Positions 1,369-51,682 of a DNA stretch of 51,682 bases are shown one piece after another. The notes beneath the pieces are model-generated. The model worked only from the letters and a program-made list of their open reading frames with translations, ran no database searches and was not told the origin of the DNA. Source of the DNA: a virus (taxonomy: Duplodnaviria; Heunggongvirae; Uroviricota; Caudoviricetes); the IMG/VR virus record IMGVR_UViG_2651869781_000017, positions 1-51,682 of that record. One strand, 5' to 3'. How positions within the stretch are numbered: the stretch's first letter is position 1; every line of letters begins with the position of its first letter. The position numbers and the translations under genes are program-made.

Positions 1369-1444
1369 GCCGATATAGCTCAGTTGGTAGAGCAGCGCAT
1401 TCGTAATGCGAAGGTCGGAGGTTCGACTCCTCTTATCGGCACCA
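1369..1444 (+). tRNA. thrW: tRNA-Thr (anticodon CGT)
   Basis: 76-nt sequence GCCGATATAGCTCAGTTGGTAGAGCAGCGCATTCGTAATGCG...GGCACCA with cloverleaf-compatible arms and CGT anticodon; immediately 3' of proA. Confidence 0.9.
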
Positions 1445-1445
1445 T
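1399..1445 (+). repeat. attL core: 47-bp direct repeat (3' half of thrW) duplicated at 41393-41439
   Basis: Exact 47-bp match ATTCGTAATGCGAAGGTCGGAGGTTCGACTCCTCTTATCGGCACCAT at both positions; flanking bases differ. Confidence 0.85.
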
Positions 1446-1458
1446 TTAAATCAATGAG

Positions 1459-2619
1459 TTACCTAGTATTTAAGTAAATCACGTTCTCCTCTTGTGCCGT
1501 ATTTGTGCCATTGCGACTTATAATCGCATCGATTTTGCTCGCGTGCTCGGTGAGATGCCCGGCTGAAAGGTGGGCGTATCTTTGAACCATTTCGAGAGTT
1601 TCCCATCCTCCCATCTCTTTAAGTGCAAGAAGAGAGACACCGGACTGAACCAGCCAGCTTGCCCAAGTATGCCTCAGGTCATGGAAGCGGAAGTTGCTAA
1701 TGCCTGCCCGCTTTAACGCTCCCTTCCATGCCTTGTTGCTGTCGGTTCTCATCTTCCTTACCGCTGCTGTTTTTGTTCCGTCGCTTCGGTAGGCAGGTTT
1801 GGTGTGGACAAACACCCATCTCTTATGGAGACCCTGCTGTTTTCTTAATATCTGGCATGCGGTTTCGTTAAGAGGAACTCCGATCGCATTGCCAGCTTTT
1901 GTTTCATCAGGGTGCATCCATGCCATTTTCTTATCCAGATCGACCTGTGACCACTCAAGGTCTGTAACGTTGGAACGGCGAAGGCCTGTCGTGATTGCAA
2001 ACATGACCACAGGGAAGAAATGAGGAGCAATTTCTGCAAACAGGCGCTTCGATTCCTCCTCTGTAAGCCATCTGATTCGTCCATTCTTAACGCGTGGTGT
2101 TGATATTTTTGGCGCCCTGTCAAGCCATCCCCATTCAACAGCCATATTGAGAATAGCGCGAAGTATTGCCAGATGCCGCGTCTTCGTTCCTTTGCTTGCC
2201 AGCTTTGGTTTATACTCCGGCACTGGCTTGCCAAGCCGCAAACACCTGTCCCGGCTCATCTCCCAGTTCAGGCGATGGCGGCGGTTTTCCATCCCGTCTA
2301 CCGCCTCCATTATTTTTTCTGTTGTTATGTCAGAGAGAATGGCTTCTCTGAAGTGCAACATCCAGAACGATATAATGCTCTTGTCATCATCAATGGACTT
2401 CTTATCCGATTTCTCACGCAGCCACCGTATGCAGGCTTCCTTGAATAGCTTTTTCGGTGATTCCCCGAGATTTTTTACTCTCCACGCTTCTGCTTTCAGA
2501 CGATCGTGAAGTTCTTGCGCTTGCCTTTTGTCCGATGTTTCAAGAGAGCGTCTAACTCTTGATCCATCTGGCGCGACGAAATCGCAGTGCCACGTGCCAC
2601 CGCGTAGTTTGATTGACAT
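1459..2619 (-). CDS. int: tyrosine integrase (P22/lambda Int family)
   Basis: 386 aa; N-terminus and C-terminal HDLRHTWAS...RYAHL motifs typical of lambdoid integrases; GGAGG RBS before ATG; adjacent to tRNA att site. Confidence 0.9.
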   Translation of the reverse strand: MSIKLRGGTWHCDFVAPDGSRVRRSLETSDKRQAQELHDRLKAEAWRVKNLGESPKKLFKEACIRWLREKSDKKSIDDDKSIISFWMLHFREAILSDITTEKIMEAVDGMENRRHRLNWEMSRDRCLRLGKPVPEYKPKLASKGTKTRHLAILRAILNMAVEWGWLDRAPKISTPRVKNGRIRWLTEEESKRLFAEIAPHFFPVVMFAITTGLRRSNVTDLEWSQVDLDKKMAWMHPDETKAGNAIGVPLNETACQILRKQQGLHKRWVFVHTKPAYRSDGTKTAAVRKMRTDSNKAWKGALKRAGISNFRFHDLRHTWASWLVQSGVSLLALKEMGGWETLEMVQRYAHLSAGHLTEHASKIDAIISRNGTNTAQEENVIYLNTR

Positions 2620-11570: not shown

Positions 11571-11939
11571 TTAGTCAGCGAAGGTTAAGACGAGAATTAC
11601 CTTAATGATGTCTGCTACAACAGACACGGCCATAGATAAACCAAAGACGATCCAAGCCACAGTGATGTCTTCACTACCATCGTATAGAGTTCCGTAATCA
11701 CTGGTGTAAGGCGTAAATGTCGCGCCTTGATACAATAGGTATAAGCTTGATCCATAGAGGATAAATGCAGATATCCCTTGTATTGCTATGATCACAAGAA
11801 TCATGAAACGAGCTGATCTATGCGCCCAAGCCTGGCTTATTTTTTCTGATAGAGATTTCGCAATAAAAGCATGCGCTAAGCCGTAAATTGTCGAGATTGC
11901 CAACATCCCAAAAAAGCTTGCTATAGCGGTTCCAACCAT
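11571..11939 (-). CDS. small multi-pass membrane protein co-transcribed with cI (rexB-position cargo)
   Basis: About 122 aa from ATG 11939 (129 aa if the TTG at 11960 overlapping the cI stop is used); four hydrophobic segments; AAGGGG RBS. Confidence 0.6.
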   Translation of the reverse strand: MVGTAIASFFGMLAISTIYGLAHAFIAKSLSEKISQAWAHRSARFMILVIIAIQGISAFILYGSSLYLLYQGATFTPYTSDYGTLYDGSEDITVAWIVFGLSMAVSVVADIIKVILVLTFAD

Positions 11940-11956
11940 AAGCGCCCCTTGCGTGA

Positions 11957-12673
11957 TCAAACCAGCCTTAGTTTTGTCTCAATTGCAACGCCTATAATCT
12001 TGCAGTTTCCATTGATTGGCACGAGAGGCCATGCAGGGTTAAGTCCCTTGAGGTATTTATTTCCGCCGTCGATTATCAGCTTCTTGAATGTTGCTTCGTT
12101 AGAGTCAGAAAGTTTTGCTATGACCAAGCTGCCGTTGATCGCCTCCCTTCCGGTATCGAAAAGAACGAATGTTCCCTCTGGAATGCTTAACCCAACCGGT
12201 GCCGTCATTGAATCACCTTCCACTTTAAGCCAGAACGCATTACCTTGAATATGCGCGTCAGACTCAAGCCAAACATCTATGTCTTTAATGGTGTATGGTT
12301 CGCATGCTTCACACCACGAGCCAGCCTGGATACTGCTTAACACCGGATACCTCTTTCCTGCTCTGTATTCCCCTGCATACCTTACGTTGGCATCGCTCTT
12401 AAGGCTTTCTGCCTGTTCTGCAACCTTGGCAGCAATTGACTGGCTAAAATCAGCAATTGAGACTTGCAACAGTCGTGCAAAACCAGATGCAACCTCAACG
12501 TTTAGCGCGTTTCTGCCATTAAGATAATGCCCTACCGCTCCTTGGGTGATACCCAGTTCATCAGCGATTGAGTATTGGGTTATTCCCAATTCTTTCTTTT
12601 TTGACTCATACAAAGCCTTAAGCCGCTTAGCGTCTTCGAGCTGTTCTGTCGTCAGTGATTTTTTATTTTCCAT
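11957..12673 (-). CDS. cI: CI-type prophage repressor (HTH_XRE plus S24 LexA-like peptidase domain)
   Basis: 238 aa; N-terminal HTH (QYSIADELGITQGAVGHYLNG) and C-terminal S24 self-cleavage domain; divergent from cro across operator region. Confidence 0.88.
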   Translation of the reverse strand: MENKKSLTTEQLEDAKRLKALYESKKKELGITQYSIADELGITQGAVGHYLNGRNALNVEVASGFARLLQVSIADFSQSIAAKVAEQAESLKSDANVRYAGEYRAGKRYPVLSSIQAGSWCEACEPYTIKDIDVWLESDAHIQGNAFWLKVEGDSMTAPVGLSIPEGTFVLFDTGREAINGSLVIAKLSDSNEATFKKLIIDGGNKYLKGLNPAWPLVPINGNCKIIGVAIETKLRLV

Positions 12674-36394: not shown

Positions 36395-36718
36395 TTAATC
36401 ATCCATGGATGGATTGAGCTTATCTCGTGTTGATGTGGCGATTTGTCCTACATTCCTAAGCCAAGATTTCAAATCCTTGATATTGTCATTGATTTCATGA
36501 ATATCTTCTTTTTTTAGTCTGTTAATATTATTCTCAATAATTTCAATGGATTGCTCAATATCAGATATAGTGAATGATAGTTTGTTCTTCTCATCTTTTA
36601 TTGAGTTTTTAAGTGCTTCGTTCTCAGTCTTGAGGTCAGATATCTTTTGTTTTAAAGATGCCAGTTGGTACTGAACCACAATGAGTGCGATAGCTATCAC
36701 GATAACTGTTGTATACAC
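36395..36718 (-). CDS. N-terminally anchored membrane coiled-coil protein (107 aa), AT-rich cargo gene
   Basis: N-terminal TM (YTTVIVIAIALIVVQY) followed by K/E/N-rich coiled coil; GC far below prophage average. Confidence 0.55.
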   Translation of the reverse strand: MYTTVIVIAIALIVVQYQLASLKQKISDLKTENEALKNSIKDEKNKLSFTISDIEQSIEIIENNINRLKKEDIHEINDNIKDLKSWLRNVGQIATSTRDKLNPSMDD

Positions 36719-36739
36719 ACAAATCTCCTTAGTTAGTAG

Positions 36740-37075
36740 CTATTTGGTAACCAAGGCAATAAACAGCGGAGCAAGGATTGCAGATATCATGAGGGCGATA
36801 AGCCACTTCTGATTCTCGTCCATCTTATCTGCTAGGCGACGCTCCATTCCGTGCATGTCGCCACGGATGCCAATCAACTCTTTTCTAGTTTCTGATATTA
36901 GCTTTTCTTGGTTGGCGGCAATCGTTTCAATGCGGGTCATTCTACTGTTCATATCTGATCCTCCTCCATTGCCACCTCCATGTGCTGGCTCTTCTGAGTC
37001 TTCAATTCCGATGGGGGCAAATTCGCTATTCGGAAAAGGATTGTCAGCATCGTAAGCCAACTTCAACTTAGACAT
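36740..37075 (-). CDS. tail-anchored membrane protein (111 aa) with Gly-rich N-terminal region
   Basis: C-terminal TM (WLIALMISAILAPLFIALV); start overlaps the stop of the upstream Zn-ribbon gene. Confidence 0.55.
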   Translation of the reverse strand: MSKLKLAYDADNPFPNSEFAPIGIEDSEEPAHGGGNGGGSDMNSRMTRIETIAANQEKLISETRKELIGIRGDMHGMERRLADKMDENQKWLIALMISAILAPLFIALVTK

Positions 37076-37433
37076 TGCTGTTTTTCTCCCTTAGATACCA
37101 GCTTAACACAACACCTGTGTTGTACTGCATAATGTATCCGCAATGCTTGCAAATTACATGATAAGAGTAATTTATTGGGTTGAATGATTCATCTTCGTTT
37201 TTTATATATTCACCATAATGGGCATGCCTACCCATGATGTCTTTTCCATTATCCTGATTTACAAATTGAACTTGAGGGACAACCATTTCAGACTGCCCGC
37301 ACATTGGGCATTCGTCTGGAACACCTTTAGCTCTCAAGAAAGAGTCGAGAACCTTTGTAGTTATAGACGATAGCGCCTTGCGATATTCAGCCTCTCGCAG
37401 TTGATCGTCTGAGTATCCTGAATTGTCACTCAT
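37068..37433 (-). CDS. zinc-ribbon protein (121 aa; CPMC...CKHC)
   Basis: Two CxxC pairs; ATGA overlap with mnt stop implies translational coupling. Confidence 0.55.
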   Translation of the reverse strand: MSDNSGYSDDQLREAEYRKALSSITTKVLDSFLRAKGVPDECPMCGQSEMVVPQVQFVNQDNGKDIMGRHAHYGEYIKNEDESFNPINYSYHVICKHCGYIMQYNTGVVLSWYLREKNSNV

Positions 37434-38025: not shown

Positions 38026-38949
38026 ATGAAAAGTATAGCAACAGCAGTATCTACTATCAATGTACCATTCCACGGCGCAGAGCTTTATGTTGTCAATCAC
38101 AACGGCGAACCGTATACCCCAATGAAACCTATCGTTGAGGGAATGGGGCTAGACTGGAAATCTCAACATAAGAAGATTTCTCAACGCTTCTCGAAGGGTA
38201 TGGTGGAAATCACCATACCTTCTGCCGGTGGGGTGCAAGCCATGATTTGTATGGCTTTACGAAAATTGGCAGCTTGGTTGAACAGCATCAGTCCTAACAA
38301 AGTCCGCCCTGAAATCCGCGACAAGGTAATCCAGTATCAGGAAGAGTGTGACGATGTGCTCTACGACTACTGGACTAAAGGCCATGTAGTTAACCCACGC
38401 AAAGCTAAAAAGGCGTTGCCGGGTAAAATCACCACTGAACAGCAGGAAGCCATTAAACAACTCGTCATGAGTCGCGGTCAGTCTCTGCCAAAAGAAAAAC
38501 AGGCTAAGGCGATGATCACCATGTGGTCGTCACTGAAATCCCATTTTGGATGTTCGTACAAAGAAATCAGTGAGGAGCAGTTTACCGAAGCACTATCACT
38601 TGCAGCTAGAGTTCCACTTGAAGGTGAGTTCATTGGCAAACAAGAGAAGAAAACCAACGAGCTTTCTGCAAAAGAAGCAAACAGCCTTGTATGGTTATGG
38701 GATTATGCCAACCGTTCGCAGGCATTATTCCGCGAACTGTATCCGGCGCTAAAACAAATTCAATCGAACTATTCCGGCAGATGTCATGACTGCGGTTATG
38801 AGTTCTCCCGTATTATCGATATGGCGAGAGATGTTTTAATCAACCATACACGAGATGTTGATATTAATGAGCCAGACGGACCAACGAATCTTTCCGCATG
38901 GATGAGACTTAAGAATAAAGAATTACCTCCTTCAGTACATAACTACTGA
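38026..38949 (+). CDS. ant: antirepressor Ant
   Basis: 307 aa; AntA-type N-terminal domain; immI position downstream of arc. Confidence 0.7.
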   Translation: MKSIATAVSTINVPFHGAELYVVNHNGEPYTPMKPIVEGMGLDWKSQHKKISQRFSKGMVEITIPSAGGVQAMICMALRKLAAWLNSISPNKVRPEIRDKVIQYQEECDDVLYDYWTKGHVVNPRKAKKALPGKITTEQQEAIKQLVMSRGQSLPKEKQAKAMITMWSSLKSHFGCSYKEISEEQFTEALSLAARVPLEGEFIGKQEKKTNELSAKEANSLVWLWDYANRSQALFRELYPALKQIQSNYSGRCHDCGYEFSRIIDMARDVLINHTRDVDINEPDGPTNLSAWMRLKNKELPPSVHNY

Positions 38950-39049
38950 CAGATAACCAACGCAACGACCCAGCTTCGGCTGGGTTTTTTTATGCCCAAA
39001 ATTCACCGTAGCCATGCTGCGGCGATTCCTTGTATCTGGAGCAAATTAA

Positions 39050-41179
39050 ATGACAGATATCACCGCAAATGTTGTGGTAAGCATGCCTTCGCAACTCTTC
39101 ACTATGGCTCGTTCTTTTAAAGCCGTAGCTAATGGCAAAATTTATATCGGAAAAATTGACACTGACCCGGTAAATCCAGGAAACCAGATCCAGGTTTATG
39201 TGGAGAACGAAGATGGCTCTCATGTTCCTGTTTCGCAACCAATCATCATTAACGCTGCCGGATATCCGGTATATAACGGACAGATTGCCAAATTCGTTAC
39301 CGTGCAAGGCCATTCTATGGCTGTTTATGATGCATATGGTGCGCAGCAGTTTTATTTTCCTAATGTGTTGAAGTATGATCCTGATCAGTTTAGTTTGAAG
39401 CTATCCATGCCTGATGGGGCAGGTGAAATTGGATATCAATATAGAAATAATGTTACATCTTCTTACCGAAGAGTAAACGACAAGCTTGATGAGCATGTCA
39501 GTATTCTGGATTTTCATAGAAATGTTGATGGTGGGTTAATCCTTCCTGCACAGAATGTTGATAGTAGACCATTCTTTGAGCGAGCACTTGTATACATTGA
39601 ATCAATAGGCGGTGGCACTATTTATGTACCGGCTGGAAAATACTATTTAAATTCATACAGTGAAATAGGGATCATAGGCACTGTCTTTAATGCAATATTG
39701 CCACTTTGCGATAATGTTAAAATTTTATTGGATACAGCGGCAGAAATAGTTGTCGGTACTTTTTTTGATGACAAGCCTTTCCAGTTGTTTTTTGGTTCTT
39801 CGCCTTTGAAACCAAATCTTGTAGACGCTGTAAATAATGTTGTCATAGAAGGTGGTACAATTAGCTTTAGTGGTTATAGCAGTATGATGAGAACAGCACC
39901 ACTAAACAGAATTGCATTGCAGACAGGAAATATAGATAATCTTCGCATATCAAATGTTACCTTTCGTGATGGTGACTTAACAAACGCTTTAGCGATAGGA
40001 TACAAAAATCTAGGCAAATATGCAGTTGTTGAGAATTGCAACTTTATTGACCTTATTCAGAACGGAATGAATAACGATCATAGTAGTATCTACCTTAATG
40101 CGTCACACTCTACAATTAATAATTGCAACTTTATTTCCACGATAGATAAAGGAAGGAAGATCGCTTGTGCTGTTGAGTTGCATAAATCTTTCAATAGTTG
40201 GATTGGTGGTAATGTTGATGGCTATACACGTGGTGCTTTTATAAACGCTATTGATACTGAATCATCTCTTGTAGAAAACACCAGAATTGAATCAGTTACC
40301 GCTAGAATACTACACCAGTTTGTAGCGTACTCGTTCGGTTCTAATGGGGTTATAAGAAATAGTCTTGTTTCAGGAAATAATGTAACAACTCTTGCGAGAA
40401 GTTCATCCGATACAGATCCTTCAGAATTTGGACCTTGCAGTCTCTGCGGTTGGGTGTCATATGGTAGTTTTGCAAATGCAGAAGGCCTAAATATCGTAGT
40501 TGAAAATAATACATACATTGTTGATGAATCAGTACAAGATTCATATAGTTGCGTATTTTATGCAATCGCAAATGTTTCAGGTGTTACTGTTCGTAGAAAC
40601 AGTGTTGGAGCGAGAACTTTTTTCTACAACCCAACCCCATCACTAAATCTTTACAATTGCCATTTTTATGAAAACAGGTTTGAGGAATCGTATGTACAGA
40701 GCGGTTCAGAAAGATTTTTATATGATCTTAACTGTAATCGTATTTCTCAAAGCACTTTCGAAGCATTTGTTCCAATAAAAACAACTGCACTGACAGGAGT
40801 TATGAGGATTGACCCATCTACGCTCGGTCCGCAGAATCGTTTTGTTGTCGATACTCAGAATACAGATAATATTGAACACCCATTTATTACAAATTTGCCA
40901 GGTTTGCTCGGGCAGGATGGTACAACTTACTCATATCCGCAAAAATGCGATGTCAACATCGGAGTTGGTTCTACACCTGTCCTATCTGTGATAAGTCCGG
41001 AAATAAGCACTGTAGACAGAGGACAGATTCTTAACAACGCGAACCTTCCATCTGGTTATGTCGCTCCGTCGTCGTTAATGAAGTACGATTCTACGCTTAC
41101 AGGAGCTGGTGTCACAGTATCAGGGACGCCATCCGGTAATTATCATGACGTGAGGATTCTACTGATAAGAGAACGTTAG
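39050..41179 (+). CDS. tailspike protein (P22-type N-terminal head-binding domain plus distinct receptor-binding domain)
   Basis: N-terminal 110 aa [34 protein letters not shown]...VLKYDPDQ matches P22 gp9 head-binding domain; rest diverges. Confidence 0.88.
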
Positions 41180-41392
41180 ATAGGTCTTGCGCAGGGACGC
41201 GCAAATCATTCGGGATTGCAAGGCTTTGTGCTCTTCTGTTGATGTGTGTCTACATGTTTGAAGATCGTTGTGCCGTATTTGTGACATACACATGACAACA
41301 TCATGCATCAACTTTCTGTTTGTGCCATCAACTATAGCTTAGTGAATGCGGTTAATGCTTGCTAAAACAGATAGTTATGATTGGTGCTACAT

Positions 41393-41439
41393 ATTCGTAA
41401 TGCGAAGGTCGGAGGTTCGACTCCTCTTATCGGCACCAT
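41393..41439 (+). repeat. attR: duplicated 3' 47 bp of thrW
   Basis: Exact copy of 1399-1445; lacks the tRNA 5' half so it is not a functional tRNA. Confidence 0.85.
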
Positions 41440-42263
41440 CAAGAAAATCAATAACTTAGCTTAACTTCTCTAAGAAATTGTATCTTCTGTTATCACTTAC
41501 AAACGCCTATACGTTGTTATGGGCTTTTGGTAGTTTAACACGTATGGGCGAGTAGTTCCCAGGCTCAACCTCGTAACAAGTTCCTTTGAAGCTGGAAGAC
41601 GTGCCACCGTCTCTAAACCTTCTACCAAAACTCTTAGCAAGATGTTCCACACCTGGCGCGGTGTCCAATGATGCTACACGTCGTGAGACGTTGCAGAGGA
41701 TAAACAGGCTAAATGATGGGAAGAGTTTTAAGTGCAATAGTGGATTAAAGCCCACCTCTTCAAAACCTAACTTGATCGGGAAAGAATCAAGCTCTAGCAC
41801 GGTTTCGTCCACCGGAGTACAACGGGTGCCTGATAAGAGAAGAACTGCTAAGACTTCATAGCTTTTGTGAAAAAGCCCTTTTTAGTGGATACGCCTACGG
41901 CGCTTATTTTTTGGTATAACCATCAAAGGCGCTTTATGGCTCCTATTGTCTTGAAAATGTATCTTTACTTGTATTGTGTTTTATGCGTAGTCTCCCTGTG
42001 TAGTATGTAACTTGTTAATTTTCATATGAATACAGAGGCACACGATGAAAAACATTGCAGCTATCAAACGTAATAACCGCAAGATTCACGCTCGTAAGTT
42101 CCTGTCTACGCCAGAGGGAAAAGCCTGGCTAGAGCGTAAACAGCGAGAGAACGAAGAAAGAAAACTCCTTAGTGAGTTGAAATGGCTTAAGGATTGAATC
42201 ACCAGTAGGCGCATAACACATCCAGCGATCAAAGATGTGTTTATGCGCCTGATAGTGAAATTA

Positions 42264-42422
42264 TTAAAGTTTTTTAGTTAATGTAGCCATTGCATGAACG
42301 ATGATCGCTAGTGAATCGATTTTATCTCGAGGGGTAAAATAGATGAGGTATATGATGGTAACAATTACAGCTAAAGTAATTGTGGTTCTGCAGGTTTTTA
42401 AAATGGATGAGATAAAGCGCAT
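42264..42422 (-). CDS. small hydrophobic protein (52 aa)
   Basis: ORF with G-rich RBS; single hydrophobic helix (TITLAVIVTIIYLIYF). Confidence 0.3.
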   Translation of the reverse strand: MRFISSILKTCRTTITLAVIVTIIYLIYFTPRDKIDSLAIIVHAMATLTKKL

Positions 42423-42748
42423 AGATACCCCCTATTGATTTAACAATAGCAAAGTATCATTTATTTTTTATTGCACGCAACATGCAAATTTTCACATATA
42501 ATAGTTTACTATTCACTTTGTATGGTGTCAACAAGATGATGTGTTGTTTTGTTTGATTTGTTCAAGATAATGTTTCATTTTCTCATCTATATAACTTGTG
42601 TTTTAGATAATTTCACTAATTGTAAAAGTTACGTATTGCTTAATAGCTACCTTTTTATCTGAAATCGGCGCAGACGTGATCAATGTTTAACGCGAAGATC
42701 AGCGGCGTCAGGTCCACGCAGCGACAATTCTCAAATATCAAGGAGGCA

Positions 42749-43288
42749 TTACGCCTCCTCTTCTTCCTTCTTGATACGTTGCACCGTTGAAGGAGCAACA
42801 TTAAAGCTCTCGGCGGTTTTACGCACTGACAGGCCATCAGAAAGGGCTTTCTTTATACCTTCTCGATCCACTGCTTTTCCATTACCACGTTTTGTAGGAT
42901 TGACGGCTTGCGCTTCTCGTTTACGTTCTAACATCAGTTCACGTTCACACGTTGCAACTGCCGACAACATCGTAAGCATCATCTTTCCCATCGCGCTTGT
43001 AATGTCTGCAATGATTCCTTCTTTGTGAAATCGAACAATTACACCTCGATTATTAAGTTGTTCAACTAAAGCAAGGATGTCTAAGGTGTTACGTCCTAAA
43101 CGGTCGAGAGAGTGCACGTGTAAGGTGTCGCCTTCTCTCAGATAGGCTAAACACGCTTGTAAGCCTGGGCGGTTAGTGTCTTTACCAGACAGCTTATCTT
43201 CAAAGACTTTATCGAGAGTTACTCCTGCAAGCTGGCGATCAGTGTTCTGATCTACAGTGCTCACACGCTTATAACCGATATTGCTCAT
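42749..43288 (-). CDS. small serine recombinase (resolvase/invertase family)
   Basis: 179 aa; catalytic N-terminus GYKRVSTVDQNTDRQ, LDRLGRN motif, C-terminal HTH. Confidence 0.85.
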   Translation of the reverse strand: MSNIGYKRVSTVDQNTDRQLAGVTLDKVFEDKLSGKDTNRPGLQACLAYLREGDTLHVHSLDRLGRNTLDILALVEQLNNRGVIVRFHKEGIIADITSAMGKMMLTMLSAVATCERELMLERKREAQAVNPTKRGNGKAVDREGIKKALSDGLSVRKTAESFNVAPSTVQRIKKEEEEA

Positions 43289-43940
43289 AAAATCCTCTTA
43301 ATGTGTCGATTTGGCACTACTTCAATGCAAATGAGTATACCGTATTCATTTGGTCTGTTTCAAGCCTTATGGGTACGGAATATTACACGATTTAGCTGTA
43401 TTCATTTGGTATGCCTAATGGATACACAGGGGGATAGATTAAATGTTGTTCTGTTTATACAGGTTTATTTGTTAGATCAACAATTTGGCATTTCTAAACA
43501 GATGTTTGAACGTTGCCAAATGTCTTGACAACACAAGAAAAGGGCTTGCTATGCCACGCATTACACGAAATAAGGCTATAAAAACAAAATAAATTTTAAA
43601 ATTTGCACAAACGAGAGAACTCATTCGACAAATAATAGATTAATTTTTAGCCAACAATTTATGATGGTGCTCTGTAAGCCGCACTACACAAGGATTTGCG
43701 AAAGTGATGTAAAAGTGAAGAAAGTGAGAATTGCCCTTTTAAGCTACTTTTTCATTGAATTTTTAGTATGGAATTACACAGGGAATAGAGAGCATTATTC
43801 TATGATTTACACAGGGAATATAGGGGGATTATGGCACACACATAGAAAGGCATTACACAGAGTGCTATGTGACAAATGGATGTAACGAGAGGTTACATTC
43901 AGCTATCTGAAATGCTCTCTGTAAGAAAGTTGGTAGTAAC

Positions 43941-44052
43941 GGTAGGTCACTGTGAACTAGGGGGGGTAGTTCACTATGAGCTAGGGGGGTAGTTCACTAT
44001 GAGCTAGGGGGTAGGTCACTGTGAACTAGGGGGTAGGTCACTGTGAACTACA
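43941..44052 (+). repeat. five tandem 22-24 bp iterons (GGTAGGTCACTGTGAACTAGGG family)
   Basis: Five direct repeats in two sequence variants, followed by an A/T-rich tract with a (TA)n run near 44100-44127. Confidence 0.8.
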
Positions 44053-45152
44053 ATAAGACTATTAATAAAACTATATTAGATTATTAATTAGATCATAATA
44101 ATAATATTCTTTATATCTATATATATATATATGATCTTTTGCCTTTCGGCGTTAGCTCCACTCTCTGGCAAGCAGCCTTACTCCGCTACCTTTCGGGCTA
44201 CGTTGGCTGGCCTCGTTCCGCTCACACCGAAAGCAAAGCGTTACTTTCTTCGTGTAACTATCGTTGGCGATAACGCCCACGAAGAAATACTATTGCGCTG
44301 TGCGCAGTAAGAGTAATCACCTAACCAATCATACTGATTGCTTACGTGTTAACTCTATCTCTCTACCTCGTAATTACCCTCCTACACTTAATAACTCTCG
44401 TTATTCTCTGTAGTTGTGTAATTACTCGAAGAGAGAGCGGCTAAAGCTCAATTACACTCTGCTTTCCTCGTGTAATTTCACTAAGCCTCAATACAATTCC
44501 ACTTCCTACATTCTGTAGTCGTGTAATTGTTTTCGGTGGAAAAGCCAGAGGCGACACCGAAAGAGAATTCTGATCTTATTAATCTTATCTATCTTAGTTA
44601 ATCTTCTTACTTACTTTATCTACTTTATTATTAATAATAGCTTTATAAGCTCTCTGTAGCTCTCTGACGCAAGAAACAGCATTCAGGAAGGGAATCACCT
44701 TAGAAAAGTGTTCTTTGCGTCATAATGTGTTTTATGAAGGATTCAGAGGTGTTTCATAACAGGAGTGTATAGAGGATACTTTAATTAATTAAAAATAAGG
44801 GGTCTAAATGCTTCTCTAACAGCATTAAGCAGGGTAGGGAATGGAAACGCATTGCCTACATATATAAGCTCACTACAGGGCTTTACAGAGCGTTTTATAA
44901 AGTGACTCTCTATCTTATATCTACCATTACCTTTTCATATACCTAACAAATACAAAATAAGCCCCTTAAATAAGCCTCTGGCGAGCTAAACAGCCATTAG
45001 ATAAGGGAATGTATTGCTTTTATCAAAATCTCGTTAGAACGCGTTTTAGAGCGTTTTAGCGGATAATGAAGAATAGCACTACACAGAAGAGCACGAATTG
45101 CTAAGAAAAAATGTAAGTGCATGAAAAAGATCAGATTTTTTGTGAAAAGGTA

Positions 45153-45181
45153 TTGACAAATGTTTCTTTATATGTAATAAT
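45153..45181 (+). promoter_or_regulatory. sigma70-like promoter (TTGACA, 17 bp, AATAAT) upstream of 45292 operon
   Basis: Consensus -35 with 17-bp spacer to an A/T -10 hexamer. Confidence 0.45.
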
Positions 45182-45291
45182 AGGTATTAGAGGGACAGAA
45201 AAACATTCTTCTCTAAATAATCAAAATCAATGCACTTTGAAGCCGTCAGGCTTGCAAGGTGTTTTTCTTTTAACTGAATAAGGAGTTTTTT

Positions 45292-45480
45292 ATGAAATGG
45301 TTTACACCGGAACACGTCGTCGCGGCATTTAAAAAAGGTGAGCTAACACGCCACCAAGTAGTAATGAATCGTAATATGGCAAGGAGTCGAGGTTATCCAG
45401 AGCGTGAAAAATGTTTCGATGCAGCACTAAAAATTATTGATGAACTAAGAAAAAATGAAAAAGAATCTGAAACAGAGTAA
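45292..45480 (+). CDS. hypothetical small protein (62 aa)
   Basis: ORF with AGGAG RBS. Confidence 0.4.
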   Translation: MKWFTPEHVVAAFKKGELTRHQVVMNRNMARSRGYPEREKCFDAALKIIDELRKNEKESETE

Positions 45481-45499
45481 AGAATAGAAGGAGAAAACT

Positions 45500-45667
45500 A
45501 TGAGCGAAACTAAGAAACCAATTCCGCGCACTTACCTACACGTTGACCCTGAAATCTTCAAGGTTTTATTTGCTGAAGCCAAGAAAAGGCAAATTATGGT
45601 CAGTGATTTGATGTTAGAAATCATTACTGAAGCAGCAGAGAACATCAAACAAAAAAAGGGTAAGTGA
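45500..45667 (+). CDS. putative ribbon-helix-helix DNA-binding protein (55 aa)
   Basis: Beta-strand then two helices pattern (RTYLHVDPEIFKVLFAEAKKRQIMVSDLMLEII); GGAG RBS. Confidence 0.4.
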   Translation: MSETKKPIPRTYLHVDPEIFKVLFAEAKKRQIMVSDLMLEIITEAAENIKQKKGK

Positions 45668-45718
45668 TCCTCATTCACTTTAGTAGCGCATTAAGCGTGA
45701 TTTATAAGGAGATTTTTA

Positions 45719-46411
45719 ATGATTAATCAACTAACTTTTACAAAACACTATGACACGTTTGATAATGTATCAAAGATTTATTCTGATAAATTCCCTCAAG
45801 GAAAAGATTTAGATCTATTACATATTGTGCTTTATTTTCGATTCCTTAGTTATCAGGAAAACAACCTTAATTGTTATGAAAGTCACGAAACATTAGCTAA
45901 GATTTTTAAGTCTTCAGCGTCAACAATTAAACGTAAGATAAACGATCTTAAAGAGATGGGATTATTAGAAACATCCCCACATCCTGATCCGTATATTTCA
46001 TCTTTGATTTACAATGCTCTCCCTCTCACAGATGCACATATTACTCCCCCAGGAGAATCATCACTCTCTGATCTTTCTGAGGCAGAAGAAGCACAGGAAC
46101 AACCTAAAGGCCATAAACAGCCTTCTTTTGATGTTCTTGATGATGATTGGGATACGCCTTTACCCTGGGAGACGGAAGAAACACCTGTTTCATCAAGTGA
46201 AAAGGTAGCTAATGATAATGAGGAGGATGTGTTAGAGAATTTTGCCTCTCTTATCATCCAGGAGAAGACTACAAGAACAGGAGGGGCATCATTTATTGAG
46301 TTTGCAAATTCACTAGCTTATAGACACGGGCTAAAACGACCAAATGGTATTGAGGCATATTTTTCTAAGCATTACCCAAATGTGTATGAAGACTTTGATA
46401 TTCCATTTTAA
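45719..46411 (+). CDS. hypothetical protein with N-terminal HTH and acidic linker (possible replication or regulatory protein)
   Basis: 230 aa; HTH-like segment (HETLAKIFKSSASTIKRKINDLKEMGLL); AGGAG RBS. Confidence 0.4.
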   Translation: MINQLTFTKHYDTFDNVSKIYSDKFPQGKDLDLLHIVLYFRFLSYQENNLNCYESHETLAKIFKSSASTIKRKINDLKEMGLLETSPHPDPYISSLIYNALPLTDAHITPPGESSLSDLSEAEEAQEQPKGHKQPSFDVLDDDWDTPLPWETEETPVSSSEKVANDNEEDVLENFASLIIQEKTTRTGGASFIEFANSLAYRHGLKRPNGIEAYFSKHYPNVYEDFDIPF

Positions 46412-46422
46412 TAAGGAGGGTT

Positions 46423-46701
46423 ATGATTCAATATTTAGTAAAAAATCAAGTAGACAGAATTCAGTGTAATGACACAGGAAAACGCATCTACGAAACACTT
46501 GCTTACCTCTATAAAGGAAAGCCAACACCGCTAAAATATAGCGATGTGTTACACCGAGCAGGGTGCTCTGAAGATGGTTTAAAATTCTGGCTGAAACAGC
46601 TATCAAATTTCGGTGTTATAGAGATTAAAGAATTATCTTTCTCTACATTCAATCTCAAAAGACTGGATAAAGAAATAGTATTCATCTATTCCACTCTCTA
46701 A
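46423..46701 (+). CDS. hypothetical protein (92 aa), possible winged-helix
   Basis: ORF with GGAGGG RBS. Confidence 0.35.
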   Translation: MIQYLVKNQVDRIQCNDTGKRIYETLAYLYKGKPTPLKYSDVLHRAGCSEDGLKFWLKQLSNFGVIEIKELSFSTFNLKRLDKEIVFIYSTL

Positions 46702-46833
46702 AATCTCTCTATGTAATTAAAATATAAAAGGAAAACATTATTATGATAGTAGCTATGTATTGGTTATTGTTCTTTCTCACGTTAGAAACATATTTCGGGG
46801 TGTTTTCCTTTAAAAGAAAAGGAAAAGTAAATA

Positions 46834-47241
46834 ATGGCAAAAAGAAAAAACAACGTTGTTAAGAAAATCGGTGATTCAGCTTCTCTTCTAAGTAAACCTA
46901 AATCTATTCTAAGACGTAAAGACTTTAAAGAGCTAGTTACGCTCTCCAAGCAAAATAGCGCCCCTGGCGAATGGAAAACAGAGATCATAGAACATTCTCC
47001 CTCTGTGCCTTGTGGAGATGAATTTAACGCCTTACAAGAAATCTTATCTTCAACACCTGGCGTATTCTGGAAACCTAGAAAAAGAAAAGAGTATATTGTT
47101 GATAGCTCTGATTTACGCAAATACCAGATTTTAGGATTTGAAGACTATAACCACTACGTTGGTTATCTCGCCACCAATGGCCTAAATAATTTAGTTCCTG
47201 AATTCCATTTAGATAATGATGATCACTATGGAGACTTTTAA
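46834..47241 (+). CDS. hypothetical basic protein (135 aa)
   Basis: ORF with AAGGAAAAG RBS. Confidence 0.35.
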   Translation: MAKRKNNVVKKIGDSASLLSKPKSILRRKDFKELVTLSKQNSAPGEWKTEIIEHSPSVPCGDEFNALQEILSSTPGVFWKPRKRKEYIVDSSDLRKYQILGFEDYNHYVGYLATNGLNNLVPEFHLDNDDHYGDF

Positions 47242-47242
47242 T

Positions 47243-47578
47243 ATGAACAAAAACACGTATGACACAATTTATTCACTAATTAATTATTATGAGGATGATT
47301 ACCTCCTGCCTTTAAACCGTGCTGAACTTGAAGCACACAAAAACTCCACGCCAGCGGCACTAAATGAGGCGTTTAAACACTGGGATTTAGCTGTGAATGC
47401 CTTTGAGATGCTCTGTAAGCGTGTAGAGATGCTCTGTAAGCGTGAAAACGCATACCTGACAGCCGATCAGATATGGGAGCTATCAAACTGGATAGAAGAT
47501 ATTGAATCTGATGTTCGCTATGTGGGAGATGGCCTTATCGAACTCGCTCAACGCTTAGCTGTTATCACAGAAGAATAA
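47243..47578 (+). CDS. hypothetical protein (111 aa) containing a 21-bp tandem duplication
   Basis: ORF contains in-frame direct repeat GAGATGCTCTGTAAGCGTG x2 (EMLCKRVEMLCKRE). Confidence 0.35.
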   Translation: MNKNTYDTIYSLINYYEDDYLLPLNRAELEAHKNSTPAALNEAFKHWDLAVNAFEMLCKRVEMLCKRENAYLTADQIWELSNWIEDIESDVRYVGDGLIELAQRLAVITEE

Positions 47579-47607
47579 AAAAAGCAACAAAAAAGTTGTA
47601 AAATATC

Positions 47608-47636
47608 TTGACATTTCATCTATTGTATGTTAATAT
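47608..47636 (+). promoter_or_regulatory. near-consensus sigma70 promoter (TTGACA, 17 bp, TAATAT)
   Basis: Exact -35 consensus, 17-bp spacer, strong -10; upstream of 47922-49540 gene block. Confidence 0.55.
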
Positions 47637-47921
47637 AATTATATAGGGTGATTATTTTTCCTTTATTGGTTCGATATTAAAAATTCTTCTTGTCGTTAAA
47701 GGGGAGTAAAATCTCCGCTCCCCGCTTCTCCTCCTCCTTAAGTGTCATTATTACCTCTTTTTTCCTTTGTTATGCATACATCTTGGAGTATGCATAACAT
47801 AGGGTAATTACATAGGTACAAGTTAATAAAAGGCGGCTCTAAATGCTGCCTTTTATTTTGCCCGTTATACAACTTAAAAGTTGTATTTCTTACTTTAAAC
47901 AAGGTAACAAGGTTTATATAA

Positions 47922-48134
47922 ATGTTGTTCTTAAATGATAAAGAGCAAATCATCAAGTATCGCGATGAAATGCTAAAGATCAATCCACAAATTACCGAAA
48001 TGGTAGCTAAATACGCTGGGTGTTCTGTCGAGGAAGTAGAAAGATGTGTTGAAAAATATTTTTCTCCTTCTTCTCCGTCTACACCTTCCCTTAATGAATT
48101 AATCAAATTAAAAGCTAAGGAGATTACTAAATGA
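47922..48134 (+). CDS. hypothetical protein (70 aa)
   Basis: ORF; stop overlaps next gene start. Confidence 0.35.
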   Translation: MLFLNDKEQIIKYRDEMLKINPQITEMVAKYAGCSVEEVERCVEKYFSPSSPSTPSLNELIKLKAKEITK

Positions 48135-48493
48135 TTATTGATTTAGACACTCTGTTTCCAGTTCGAAAGACTTTCACAGATATTGTAAGTTATTGTACTG
48201 ATCCGTTTGCCTCTGTAGAAAACAAGGTTTTTGCTTCTCTTCCTGCTGATGTTGAATGCGGAGACTTGATCACCAGCACTGGCGCTAAATATGTATCAGG
48301 AGATGATATCTATGTTGTTATGAGTGAATTTGTAACGGCTGGAGACAACAAGCCTGTAGATGTGCTACGTAGCAATGCTGGTCTTGTCTGCATCAAAGCT
48401 GATGCGCTGAATGCTGTAAGTGAAGCAGCAAAAACAGCATTAATTAAAAAAGGCTTCCAGCTTGAAGGCTTCCACTCTGTTTTCACTTCTTAA
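48131..48493 (+). CDS. hypothetical protein (120 aa), possible virion accessory or decoration protein
   Basis: ORF immediately upstream of capsid-like gene. Confidence 0.3.
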   Translation: MIIDLDTLFPVRKTFTDIVSYCTDPFASVENKVFASLPADVECGDLITSTGAKYVSGDDIYVVMSEFVTAGDNKPVDVLRSNAGLVCIKADALNAVSEAAKTALIKKGFQLEGFHSVFTS

Positions 48494-48511
48494 TAAAAGG
48501 AATAATAATAA

Positions 48512-49540
48512 ATGATTCTAGGTAATGATTACGTTGATTTAGCTCCTTTGTTCTCTGCGCATAGCACTAGAAACTATCTGCTTTCTACTCTCGACTTCAC
48601 TGATCCGGTGGGCGTTAGTTCTCATAAAGTAGCTGTTTCCCAGCTTGTCGAAAGCAACGAATCTCTCTTTAACAAAGAGACAAGCCGTTTTAGTTCTGAA
48701 CACAATGTTACTAAGCGAGAACAAGGTAAAGAATGGCTGATTGAAATCCCTTACTTCCTGCGTGAAGATGTGATCCGTCCTTCTGATGTTCAAGGCAAAC
48801 GTAAACCTGGCACTGATTTTCAGGAAACACTCACTGATATTTATGCTGACTATGTTGCTAAACACCACGTAGCGTATCAGCGCACTAAAGAAAGCGTATT
48901 GGCTGCATCTCTGTTTAGCGGTAAAACTTACACGCCTAAAACTGATGATGTGTTAATTGAGTGGGGCAAGCTGTTTAACGTATCAGCTATGAAAGCCACT
49001 GTGAACGCTTCCAGCACTGACACCACGAAGATTTTTAAAGAATTTGATCAGATTGCTACTGACATTATCGAGAAAGCACAAAGCCAGGCGGCTGCTGTAG
49101 AGCGTATTGTTGTTTTCTGTAAGCCGGAAGCCTTCTCTGCAATTCGATTCTCTGCGGGTATGGCAAACGCATTCCAGTATGTAAGCCCACTGGAAGAAGG
49201 GAACGTTGTGTATCAGCGTCGTGACCTGCTACCAGGAGTGACAGCGTTCACTATTCCAGGAACTAACATTGATGTTATTAAACTGGTAGATCCGCTACAC
49301 CTTGCACATATGACCGCTGACGCTGTAGCCGTGCCTAAATTCGCTAAAGGCTCTAACGTCTACCAGGCCATCTATGGGGCGGCTTCCAGCACCTTTGAAC
49401 TGATCAATGCCGCTCCTGCTGAGGTTTACAGCTACAGCTATGAATCTTCTCGTGGTGATGCTGTTAACGTTGTTACAGAGAATAGCCAGATGGTTGTAAA
49501 CCACGGTGTAGGCTTCTCCGTTCAAATCACTGTTAAATAA
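48512..49540 (+). CDS. putative major capsid protein (possible T7 gp10-like, HK97 fold)
   Basis: 342 aa; local resemblance to T7 gp10A (ours RIVVFCKPEAFSAI versus T7 RVFYCDPDSYSAI) and similar length; from memory only. Confidence 0.4.
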   Translation: MILGNDYVDLAPLFSAHSTRNYLLSTLDFTDPVGVSSHKVAVSQLVESNESLFNKETSRFSSEHNVTKREQGKEWLIEIPYFLREDVIRPSDVQGKRKPGTDFQETLTDIYADYVAKHHVAYQRTKESVLAASLFSGKTYTPKTDDVLIEWGKLFNVSAMKATVNASSTDTTKIFKEFDQIATDIIEKAQSQAAAVERIVVFCKPEAFSAIRFSAGMANAFQYVSPLEEGNVVYQRRDLLPGVTAFTIPGTNIDVIKLVDPLHLAHMTADAVAVPKFAKGSNVYQAIYGAASSTFELINAAPAEVYSYSYESSRGDAVNVVTENSQMVVNHGVGFSVQITVK

Positions 49541-49625
49541 TATTTAACGTGTAATAGAGGCGTGGCGTGTATTCACGCTTCGCCTTTTTTTTATTTATTT
49601 TTAAATTTTGAGAGGTGATTAAAAT

Positions 49626-49829
49626 ATGGAAGTGATTCTGAAATCAAAAAATGGTGTCCACGTACATTTAGATGCTAATGATTCTAGAGGCTTGTTAAAT
49701 CTGAAATATCTATGTTCTCTCTTAGATGTTCCATATGAAGGAGTAAAAGCCCGTATGTTCAGACTAAACGAGAGTATTGATCAGGCTCTACACCATTTCT
49801 TAAGTAAAGAAGGTGGTAAAAATGATTAA
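49626..49829 (+). CDS. hypothetical small protein (67 aa)
   Basis: ORF between capsid-like gene and large downstream ORF. Confidence 0.3.
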   Translation: MEVILKSKNGVHVHLDANDSRGLLNLKYLCSLLDVPYEGVKARMFRLNESIDQALHHFLSKEGGKND

Positions 49830-49843
49830 TAAGGGGATTTTAA

Positions 49844-51682
49844 ATGTTAGAAATTAACACTTCTAAAATTAAGAACACAGTTACATTTAGTGTAGATAAA
49901 GACAGCTTGAAAAAAGCGAAAGACTCTATTACAGGCTTAAAGGAATTCGCAGAAAATATCAAGCCTGCTAAATTAAGATTTGATACTGTCACTAAAGGCT
50001 ATAAGAAAGCACAAAGTGAAGTAGATAAGATTGCTCAACAGAAAGCGAAAAACGAAAAACAGAATCAAAGAGCACAAGCTGCCGCAGCAAGAGCACAGGC
50101 AAGGCAACAGCAACAAATAGCAGCACGTAAGGAGAAAGCTGAACTAAAGCTTTTAGACGTTGGATCAAGCATTAGTGCAATGCACCGTCTTTCTGTAGCT
50201 GAACAATACAAAGCTATTGCACAGGCTAGAGAGATAGCAAAACAATATGAGCAAGGGGCTATCTCGCTTGCACGTATGAATAGCCAGATGAAACGCTTAC
50301 AACAGCAACAACGTAAGATTAATGGCAACAGAAAAGCTCAATTAGCCCCCGTTAAGGGAGGATCAGGGAATTCCGCCACTATGGGCGCTCTGTTATTTGG
50401 AGGCGCTACGGCGGCTGCTGGCGTGATGGCTGTAAGTAAAACCGCCGAGTTTGTTAGTAAAAGTTTCGCTAACGCAGAGACACAAGGAGAATTAATCCAA
50501 CGTGCAAGGCTTGGCGGTGTAGACGTTAACCAGATGTATAACATTACAGAATGGGCGTATAAAAACGGCGTTGACTCTATGATGGGTGATCAAGGGGCTA
50601 GAAAATACCTGGATCAGATGAAAGATGTTAGGGAACGTGCTACCAAATCTTATGACGAGGCTGAATATGTAGTTGATAAGAAAACAGGGAAAGGCATATG
50701 GAAAGGCGGTGATAACGGTATTAATGAACTTCTAAACATCGGTGTTATTAACAAAAGCGACCTTAAAAAATTTGCTGATAATCCAGCCGGATTAATTTCT
50801 AAGGCTGTTAATGGAATGATGAAAAAAGGGTTTTCAGATTCTCAAATTGGACAACGTTTAGAAGACCTGGGCGATGATTTGATGCTTACGTCAAAATATT
50901 GGCAACGTTCCGTTAAAGATGTACAAGAAAGTATTAATCAGCAAAAAGCCTCTGGAAAATGGCTAACAGAAACACAGCAAGACTCTATCGTTAAATTCAG
51001 AGAACTAAACAGACAGCTTTCGCAGCTTTCTGATGCAAGACAAGTAGCATTTGTAGACGGGTTTATGAAATCTCTCGATCCAAAAGTAACGGAAGAGTTT
51101 TTGAAAAACCTTTCTAATCTCACTCCGTATTTTACGAAGCTGGGAGAAGCTACAGGAAGTCTCTTTGAAGCTATTATGAAGATTGTAAACTGGTTTAATC
51201 GTAATGATGATAAGACAGAGGCTATTCAGAAAAATTTAGGTGATGCACCGCCATTAAGCAATGAAGGAATGAAACAGAATCTTTCTAATCTCGTTCCTGA
51301 CCAATATAAAGGCGCTGGCACTGCAACAACTACACCTGATAATAGTCATTCTCTCTTTAACACGATTAAGGGATTGCTTTTCGATGATAAATCTTCTGTG
51401 TCAGATGTAAAAATGTCAGTCAGCGAAGCACCGATAACCAATCTCAAACAGGGTGCTTTAAATAATCTTGCAATGACAACTCCGGCTTATAATTTATCTC
51501 CTGTATTCAATCTGAATCCGACATTTGAAGTGGTAACGGAGGTTCCGCTTACTATTAATTCTGACACGTCCAGATTAAGCGATTATGTGGATTTTACAGC
51601 GAGAGCAAGTCGGGATAGCTTCTTGAAATCATTAACATTAACCAGCTTATCAGGACAATCTAACGGCGGGGAATTCCCGCCA
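49844..51682 (+). CDS. large coiled-coil protein, 3'-truncated by window end (at least 613 aa)
   Basis: Open frame from ATG 49844 to window end with no stop (absent from ORF track because no stop); Q/A/R-rich coiled coil then Gly/Ala hydrophobic segment. Confidence 0.5.
   Translation, partial: MLEINTSKIKNTVTFSVDKDSLKKAKDSITGLKEFAENIKPAKLRFDTVTKGYKKAQSEVDKIAQQKAKNEKQNQRAQAAAARAQARQQQQIAARKEKAELKLLDVGSSISAMHRLSVAEQYKAIAQAREIAKQYEQGAISLARMNSQMKRLQQQQRKINGNRKAQLAPVKGGSGNSATMGALLFGGATAAAGVMAVSKTAEFVSKSFANAETQGELIQRARLGGVDVNQMYNITEWAYKNGVDSMMGDQGARKYLDQMKDVRERATKSYDEAEYVVDKKTGKGIWKGGDNGINELLNIGVINKSDLKKFADNPAGLISKAVNGMMKKGFSDSQIGQRLEDLGDDLMLTSKYWQRSVKDVQESINQQKASGKWLTETQQDSIVKFRELNRQLSQLSDARQVAFVDGFMKSLDPKVTEEFLKNLSNLTPYFTKLGEATGSLFEAIMKIVNWFNRNDDKTEAIQKNLGDAPPLSNEGMKQNLSNLVPDQYKGAGTATTTPDNSHSLFNTIKGLLFDDKSSVSDVKMSVSEAPITNLKQGALNNLAMTTPAYNLSPVFNLNPTFEVVTEVPLTINSDTSRLSDYVDFTARASRDSFLKSLTLTSLSGQSNGGEFPP

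Follow-up and report, generated by a model that had tools for sequence, protein, structure and literature searches.

A thrW-integrated P22-like prophage carries a tailspike with a diverged HK620-family receptor-binding body on a P22-type head-binding anchor

Introduction

The receptor-binding domains of tailspikes set phage host range, and they find use in serotyping, in the engineering of phages and tailocins (as grafts) and as enzymes that cleave glycans. In bacteriophage P22 the tailspike is gp9, an endorhamnosidase, and by annotation gtrCBA occupies the stretch between gene 9 and attP. In bacteriophage HK620, whose gp9 is 710 aa long, gene 9 is followed by hkcF, which is annotated as similar to a Shigella flexneri O-antigen polymerase. 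The HK620 tailspike is specific for the O18A1/O18A O-antigen of E. coli (PMC6024685). The modular nature of these proteins is well described; Pas et al. 2023 reported the exchange of anchors and receptor-binding domains (RBDs) among Lederberg-, Uetake- and Kutterviruses, noted that the receptor-binding proteins of Lederberg- and Uetakevirus prophages generally track the O-serogroup of the host, and delimited receptor-binding protein subtypes by a threshold of at least 30% identity over at least 60% coverage (PMC10408124).

Here we analyze a tailspike gene in a 51,682-nt stretch of DNA (IMG/VR record IMGVR_UViG_2651869781_000017), referred to below as the window. An original prediction made from the sequence had described the product as a tailspike with a P22-type head-binding domain and a distinct receptor-binding body. 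We find that the body is a diverged homologue within the HK620 tailspike endoglycosidase family, and not an orphan, and that it behaves as an exchangeable cassette.

Results

A P22-like prophage at thrW

The window opens with proA and the tRNA-Thr(CGU) gene thrW, from which we take the host to be E. coli, and its segment 29050-51179 is 100% identical to contig JHRR01000036.1 of GCA_001265575.1. The attL core (1399..1445, + strand) lies inside thrW (1369-1444), and the attR core (41393..41439, +) exactly repeats 47 nt from the thrW 3' end; this 47-nt repeat shares 95.7% identity with the P22 attP core. A tyrosine integrase gene (1459..2619, - strand; Pfam Phage_integrase, E 1.1e-34) adjoins attL and has about 68% DNA identity with P22 int. 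The virion genes comprise homologues of genes 4, 10, 26, 14, 7, 20 and 16 (gp4, gp10, gp26, gp14, gp7, gp20 and gp16), and are followed by mnt, arc, ant and the tailspike gene, which is thus the last gene of the late operon, placed after gene 16 and immI in the same order as in the P22 and HK620 annotations. The gene for the antirepressor Ant (38026..38949, +; Pfam P22_AR_N and P22_AR_C, PHROG 245) lies directly 5' of the tailspike gene as it does in P22, and is followed by a terminator-like hairpin with a T-run (38967..38995, +), within a block of 92.9% identity to HK620 where HK620 annotates tANT. The element is apparently a complete P22-like (Lederbergvirus-type) prophage of about 40 kb, integrated in thrW.

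The tailspike gene and its head-binding anchor

The tailspike gene, the equivalent of gene 9, is an ATG..TAG open reading frame at 39050..41179 (+) that encodes 709 aa, with a GGAG ribosome-binding site 8-11 nt 5' of the ATG. The protein is the same, with zero differences, as RefSeq WP_052931856.1 (P0015 in our set), which is annotated simply as a 'phage head-binding domain-containing protein'; it is therefore already present in RefSeq without characterization, and is a recognizable member of the HK620 family. The head-binding, or particle-anchor, domain (39050..39388, +) spans residues 1-113 and matches Pfam Head_binding (PF09008) over the full length of the model (E 7.6e-67); no other family was matched in a Pfam search with the whole protein.

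In a BLASTP comparison with P22 gp9 (from NC_002371), residues 1-117 are 75% identical (E 7e-54), and nothing past residue 117 is significantly similar. The original prediction, that the likeness to P22 gp9 is confined to about the first 110 residues and that the remaining 600 or so are unlike P22, is thus borne out, with the limit falling at residues 113-117 according to Pfam and BLASTP. Its suggestion that the N-terminus closely resembles the HK620 tailspike also holds, since the first 113 aa are 97.3% identical to those of HK620 gp9. At the DNA level, 38933-39393 is 92.9% identical to HK620. The anchor is common among E. coli genomes, with its DNA (approximately the first 340 nt) found at 80-95% identity in 1,130 of 5,426 complete genomes.

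Two open reading frames run antisense to the tailspike gene, one of 107 aa over its start (38990-39313, -) and one of 50 aa over its end (41159-41311, -); both are without support and most likely spurious.

A receptor-binding body of the HK620 family

The resemblance to HK620 spans the whole protein and not the N-terminus alone. A phmmer search of PDB sequences aligns residues 110-607 with HK620 TSPdeltaN (E 3e-62), and PHROG 20900 matches the tailspike over nearly its full length (E 3e-98). By BLASTP, the closest characterized relative of the body is HK620 gp9, with only 35% identity over 422 aa (E 2e-63); global identity of the two bodies is 31%. Identity declines along the protein, from 49% (residues 114-160) through 36-40% (161-420) and 28% (421-530) to 16-20% (531-709). 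The description of the body as distinct therefore stands relative to P22, and does not stand relative to HK620, with which it shares family, fold and the catalytic Asp/Glu pair; at the same time, the receptor-binding domain is far from identical to its nearest characterized counterpart, the HK620 body being just 35% identical.

An AlphaFold2 model of the monomer, built on a 41-sequence family alignment, has pLDDT mostly above 90 for residues 150-709 and below 50 in the N-terminal domain; the anchor is poorly modelled because the alignment contains few head-binding sequences. Among the Foldseek matches listed for the PDB, the top ones are 26 HK620 tailspike entries (E about 1e-35 to 4e-35), and the model superimposes on HK620 TSP 2vji with a target-normalized TM of 0.87 and an rmsd of 3.7 A over 623 aligned columns. 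The next match listed is the capsule depolymerase gp49 of Acinetobacter phage APK14 (PDB 8oq1; TM 0.66). The P22 and Sf6 tailspikes are weak matches to the model; for P22 gp9 there is a generic beta-helix likeness with TM of about 0.2-0.25. As the HK620 match extends over 623 columns, the C-terminal domain, divergent as it is in sequence, is predicted to share the HK620 fold as well. The model thus depicts the body as a right-handed parallel beta-helix followed by a C-terminal domain, superimposing on HK620.

Conservation of the catalytic residues

Barbirz et al. 2008 and Broeker et al. 2013 reportedly identified D339 and E372 as the catalytic residues of HK620 tailspike, an endo-N-acetylglucosaminidase. 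The titles of PDB entries name D339 and E372 as mutated HK620 residues; a search of the open-access literature found no text naming HK620 E372Q or D339N. Published HK620 numbering omits Met1, such that D339 and E372 are residues 340 and 373 of the translated gene. Pairwise alignments place D343 (codon 40076..40078, +) at the position of Asp339, and E376 (codon 40175..40177, +) aligns with Glu372, with H378 completing an ELH motif. The motifs are NNDHS around D343 and CAVELHK around E376, the latter corresponding to CSVELHQ around E372 in HK620, and the E372Q variants in the PDB depart from wild type at exactly the position that aligns with E376. Among 41 relatives with 20-90% identity, D343, E376 and H378 are three of only six invariant columns.

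Conservation does not extend to the loop D470-S472 of HK620, which is named in PDB deletion mutants and aligns with V-S-Y in the window protein. Since this loop is not conserved and identity in the C-terminal region falls to 16-20%, the HK620 substrate is not transferred to this protein.

The body as an exchangeable cassette

The receptor-binding cassette (39394..41210, +) consists of the neck, beta-helix and C-terminal domain (residues ~115-709) together with about 30 nt of 3' flank. DNA homology with HK620 ends at 39393, that is at codon 115, right after a YDPDQF hinge. GC content at third codon positions (GC3) is 0.39 for the anchor and drops to 0.28 for the body, whereas it is 0.42 in the HK620 body and 0.38 in the P22 body; this drop suggests that the body may have been imported from a lower-GC lineage. 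The ends of the cassette are defined by the limits of the DNA that it shares with two relatives: a Uetakevirus-type E. coli copy (L004) has 39411-41210 in common with the window at 83.8% identity, and a Citrobacter copy has 39265-41218 in common at 92% identity.

Related bodies occur on several unrelated anchors. Two (P0002 and P0003), 86% and 80% identical to the window body, sit on a Uetakevirus-type anchor with about 80% identity to the phiV10/SPN1S anchor (P0002 to phiV10), and a third (P0004), 72% identical, on a Tail_spike_N (PF18668) anchor of Kuttervirus/TSP1 type, such that these Uetake- and Kuttervirus-type tailspikes resemble the window tailspike in their bodies, and in shared DNA at 39411-41210, and differ from it in their anchors. 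Bodies that are 89-90% identical occur in Citrobacter amalonaticus, and one that is 49% identical occurs on a head-binding anchor in Morganella morganii. The HK620-like bodies themselves form a separate lineage, represented by P0010, that is 32% identical to the query. The copy in C. amalonaticus P55 (L006, 4911-7906) is split into two open reading frames, in a prophage remnant beside cusS/cusR.

The same tailspike is also found on different prophage backgrounds. Four assemblies encode an intact, identical protein, and at least three distinct mosaic backbones, integrated at thrW or at argW, carry it. Two thrW prophages (L009, L010) carry the same tailspike allele together with a gp16, a tail needle gp26 (with a Phage_tail_NK knob) and an immI other than those of the window prophage, and two argW prophages (L003, L007) have a different integrase, whose gene directly adjoins the 3' end of the tailspike gene and runs towards it; there are 0-4 amino acid differences across L003, L007, L009 and L010. 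An intact protein that recurs in several backbones fits a selected, working module. Swapping of this kind is textbook anchor/RBD modularity and challenges no current idea.

Just after the tailspike stop codon is a GC-rich hairpin without a T-run (41187-41206; TTGCGC-AGGGAC-GCGCAA). It falls within the 3' flank that is common to other copies of the cassette, where homology stops at 41210-41236, and may be a 3' recombination boundary or a weak terminator.

The cassette is rare. An exhaustive phmmer search of 1.84 billion cluster representatives recovered just 88 clusters at E<=1e-3; 28 of these reached E<=1e-30, and only two exceed 50% identity. The >=90% cluster has 38 members, in assemblies that include GCA_001265575.1 and GCA_026306485.1. 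Neither megablast nor sensitive blastn found the body DNA in any of the 5,426 complete E. coli genomes, in which the anchor alone was matched, and none of the isolated phages in the phage collection carries the cassette, HK620 being the best match. A literature search by accession of the protein, its relatives and the carrier assemblies returned nothing relevant.

Conversion genes beside the tailspike

From the tailspike stop codon to the attR core there are 213 nt, in which we find no plausible open reading frame and no gtr-, oac- or wzy-type gene, and a hydropathy scan of the window reading frames of at least 90 aa identified none with five or more transmembrane segments. The claim that no gtr operon lies between the tailspike gene and attR is thereby confirmed and, as judged from the sequence, extends to the absence of any gtr/oac/wzy-type gene from the prophage. 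The locus differs in this respect both from P22, with gtrABC between gene 9 and attP, and from HK620, where hkcF follows gene 9. We also considered whether the spacer holds a remnant of a deleted conversion gene, and rejected this, as it contains only the hairpin common to the cassettes and then sequence of the att flank.

In two relatives with the same cassette the tailspike gene is followed by an Acyl_transf_3 gene. The one in C. amalonaticus (L006) is Oac-like, aligning along its entire length with the Sf6 O-antigen acetylase at 32% identity, and the one in the Uetakevirus-type E. coli prophage (L004, 4972-6072), where it adjoins the tailspike gene, is a different Acyl_transf_3 gene. The two are only 20% identical to each other, which rules out that the acyltransferases travel with the cassette and suggests that they are independent acquisitions of a receptor-masking function. 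An Oac-family acyltransferase gene beside the tailspike gene is the classical O-antigen seroconversion arrangement, as in Sf6 and phiV10.

Discussion

Function of the tailspike

We are confident, with some room for doubt, that this protein is a functional glycan-hydrolysing tailspike, in which an HK620-family body is carried by a P22-type anchor and for which O-antigen is the most likely substrate. Its domain architecture, fold, catalytic conservation, cassette boundaries and position in the genome are computed, and it is from these that we infer the trimeric state, the activity, the glycan and the linkage. The anchor (residues 1-113), being 97% identical to that of HK620, would attach the spike, presumably a trimer, to the tail hub; by analogy with HK620 the groove of the beta-helix would bind a host surface polysaccharide, and the D343/E376 pair would hydrolyse the bound polysaccharide, with cleavage letting the virion descend to the outer membrane. 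The substrate would be an O-antigen repeat other than the O18A1 of HK620.

It has been suggested above that the gene belongs to a working module, and the contrary view, that a decaying prophage has left behind a gene without function or that the spike binds its glycan and does not cleave it, we regard as scarcely credible. Decay of the cassette does occur, as the split C. amalonaticus copy demonstrates. In the window, however, the reading frame is intact, the ribosome-binding site is present and the catalytic residues are kept; both att cores, an integrase gene and the full set of P22-type virion genes are present in the prophage, and prophages of different mosaic make-up encode an identical protein.

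The nature of the glycan admits more than one reading, and the relationship to HK620 bears on each of them. That the substrate is most likely an O-antigen is argued by analogy: the closest characterized relative is O-antigen specific (PMC6024685), the receptor-binding proteins of Lederberg- and Uetakevirus prophages follow host O-serogroup (PMC10408124), HK620 gene 9 precedes an O-antigen polymerase-like gene, and two relatives with the cassette carry acyltransferase genes after the tailspike gene, one of them similar to Sf6 Oac and the two evidently acquired separately. The target of the cassette might instead be capsule (a K antigen, group 4 capsule or the like) or some other exopolysaccharide, which would make the protein a capsule depolymerase. 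Members of the wider family in Acinetobacter phages are indeed capsule depolymerases, among them TaPaz tailspike II (28% identity, residues 171-663) and APK14 gp49; P22-like coliphages can use capsule, and the endosialidase tailspike of CUS-3 has the same anchor. These Acinetobacter proteins share with the window tailspike a broad fold and sequence family (23-28% identity across some 500 residues; TM 0.66), and differ from it in their hosts, their capsular polysaccharide substrates and their anchors. The O-antigen specificity of HK620, the association of Oac-family acyltransferases with the cassette in a classical seroconversion arrangement and the serogroup tracking of related prophage proteins all weigh against a capsular substrate, and we consider it unlikely.

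A further reading is that the body is a distant allele that has kept the HK620 specificity, namely O18A/O18A1 as an endo-N-acetylglucosaminidase. The two proteins have much in common, with nearly identical anchors, 709 and 710 aa, the same gene position in a P22-like genome, the same body fold (TM 0.87) and a conserved catalytic Asp/Glu pair and ELH motif, and their 35% identity over ~71% of the body passes the subtype threshold of Pas et al. (PMC10408124). Global identity of the bodies is nevertheless only 31%, with 35% over the first ~420 residues giving way to 16-20% in the last ~180, such that sequence alignment fails in the C-terminal third, and the stretch corresponding to the D470-S472 loop differs. 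Moreover, the much lower GC3 (0.28 against 0.42) indicates another evolutionary source, HK620-like bodies form a lineage of their own (P0010, 32% to the query), and the cassette is present in 0 of 5,426 complete E. coli genomes. Retention of the HK620 specificity is thus very improbable. Low identity, the unalignable C-terminal third and the V-S-Y replacing D470-S472 instead indicate that the specificity probably differs from O18A1.

Returning to an O-antigen other than O18A1, we lean towards the view, with distinctly less assurance than for the assignment as a glycan-hydrolysing spike, that the glycan specificity is new among characterized tailspikes. The glycan in question would be an O-antigen, or an O-antigen-like polysaccharide, common to a rare E. 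coli serogroup and C. amalonaticus, recognized by a cassette that is distributed among three unrelated anchors (Lederberg-, Uetake- and Kuttervirus), and the window prophage would leave its own receptor unmodified, unlike those that carry O-acetylase genes.

The likeness to P22 lies in the anchor (75% identity over residues 1-117), the role of the protein, the position of its gene and the thrW att core, and not in the sequence of the body. The tailspike therefore adds an uncharacterized branch to the small HK620 family, and the clean boundaries of the cassette, together with its natural copies on three anchors, make it simple to clone and test.

Other open reading frames and a tandem element

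Three small leftward reading frames (107, 111 and 121 aa; 36395-37433, -) lie between gene 16 and mnt, at the immI site occupied in P22 by sieA/orf59a. They have predicted transmembrane or coiled-coil segments and a CxxC...CxxC motif, and match PHROGs 5962, 6324 and 4293, which are families with no assigned function; other prophages with the same tailspike have different reading frames at this spot. As a known defence system they were rejected, PADLOC returning only sub-threshold coiled-coil noise, and they are candidate superinfection-exclusion or moron genes. A 129-aa reading frame with three predicted transmembrane segments (11571-11960, -), for which PADLOC gave no match, is located directly downstream of the open reading frame 11957..12673, which is taken to be a putative repressor from its position alone.

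Directly to the right of attR there is a second mobile element in tandem (41440-51682), which continues past the end of the window. Phage-like and low in GC (0.34-0.40), it includes genes for a serine recombinase (42749..43288, -) and for an HTH regulator (45719..46411), as well as a capsid-protein-E-like gene (48512..49540). The island recurs in strain DSM 103263, where it is about 11 kb long, directly abuts thrW and terminates, next to paoD, in genes for a 'phage baseplate protein' and a tyrosine integrase. At least 80% of the tandem island is covered in 214 complete E. coli genomes, and the element is possibly satellite-like or cryptic.
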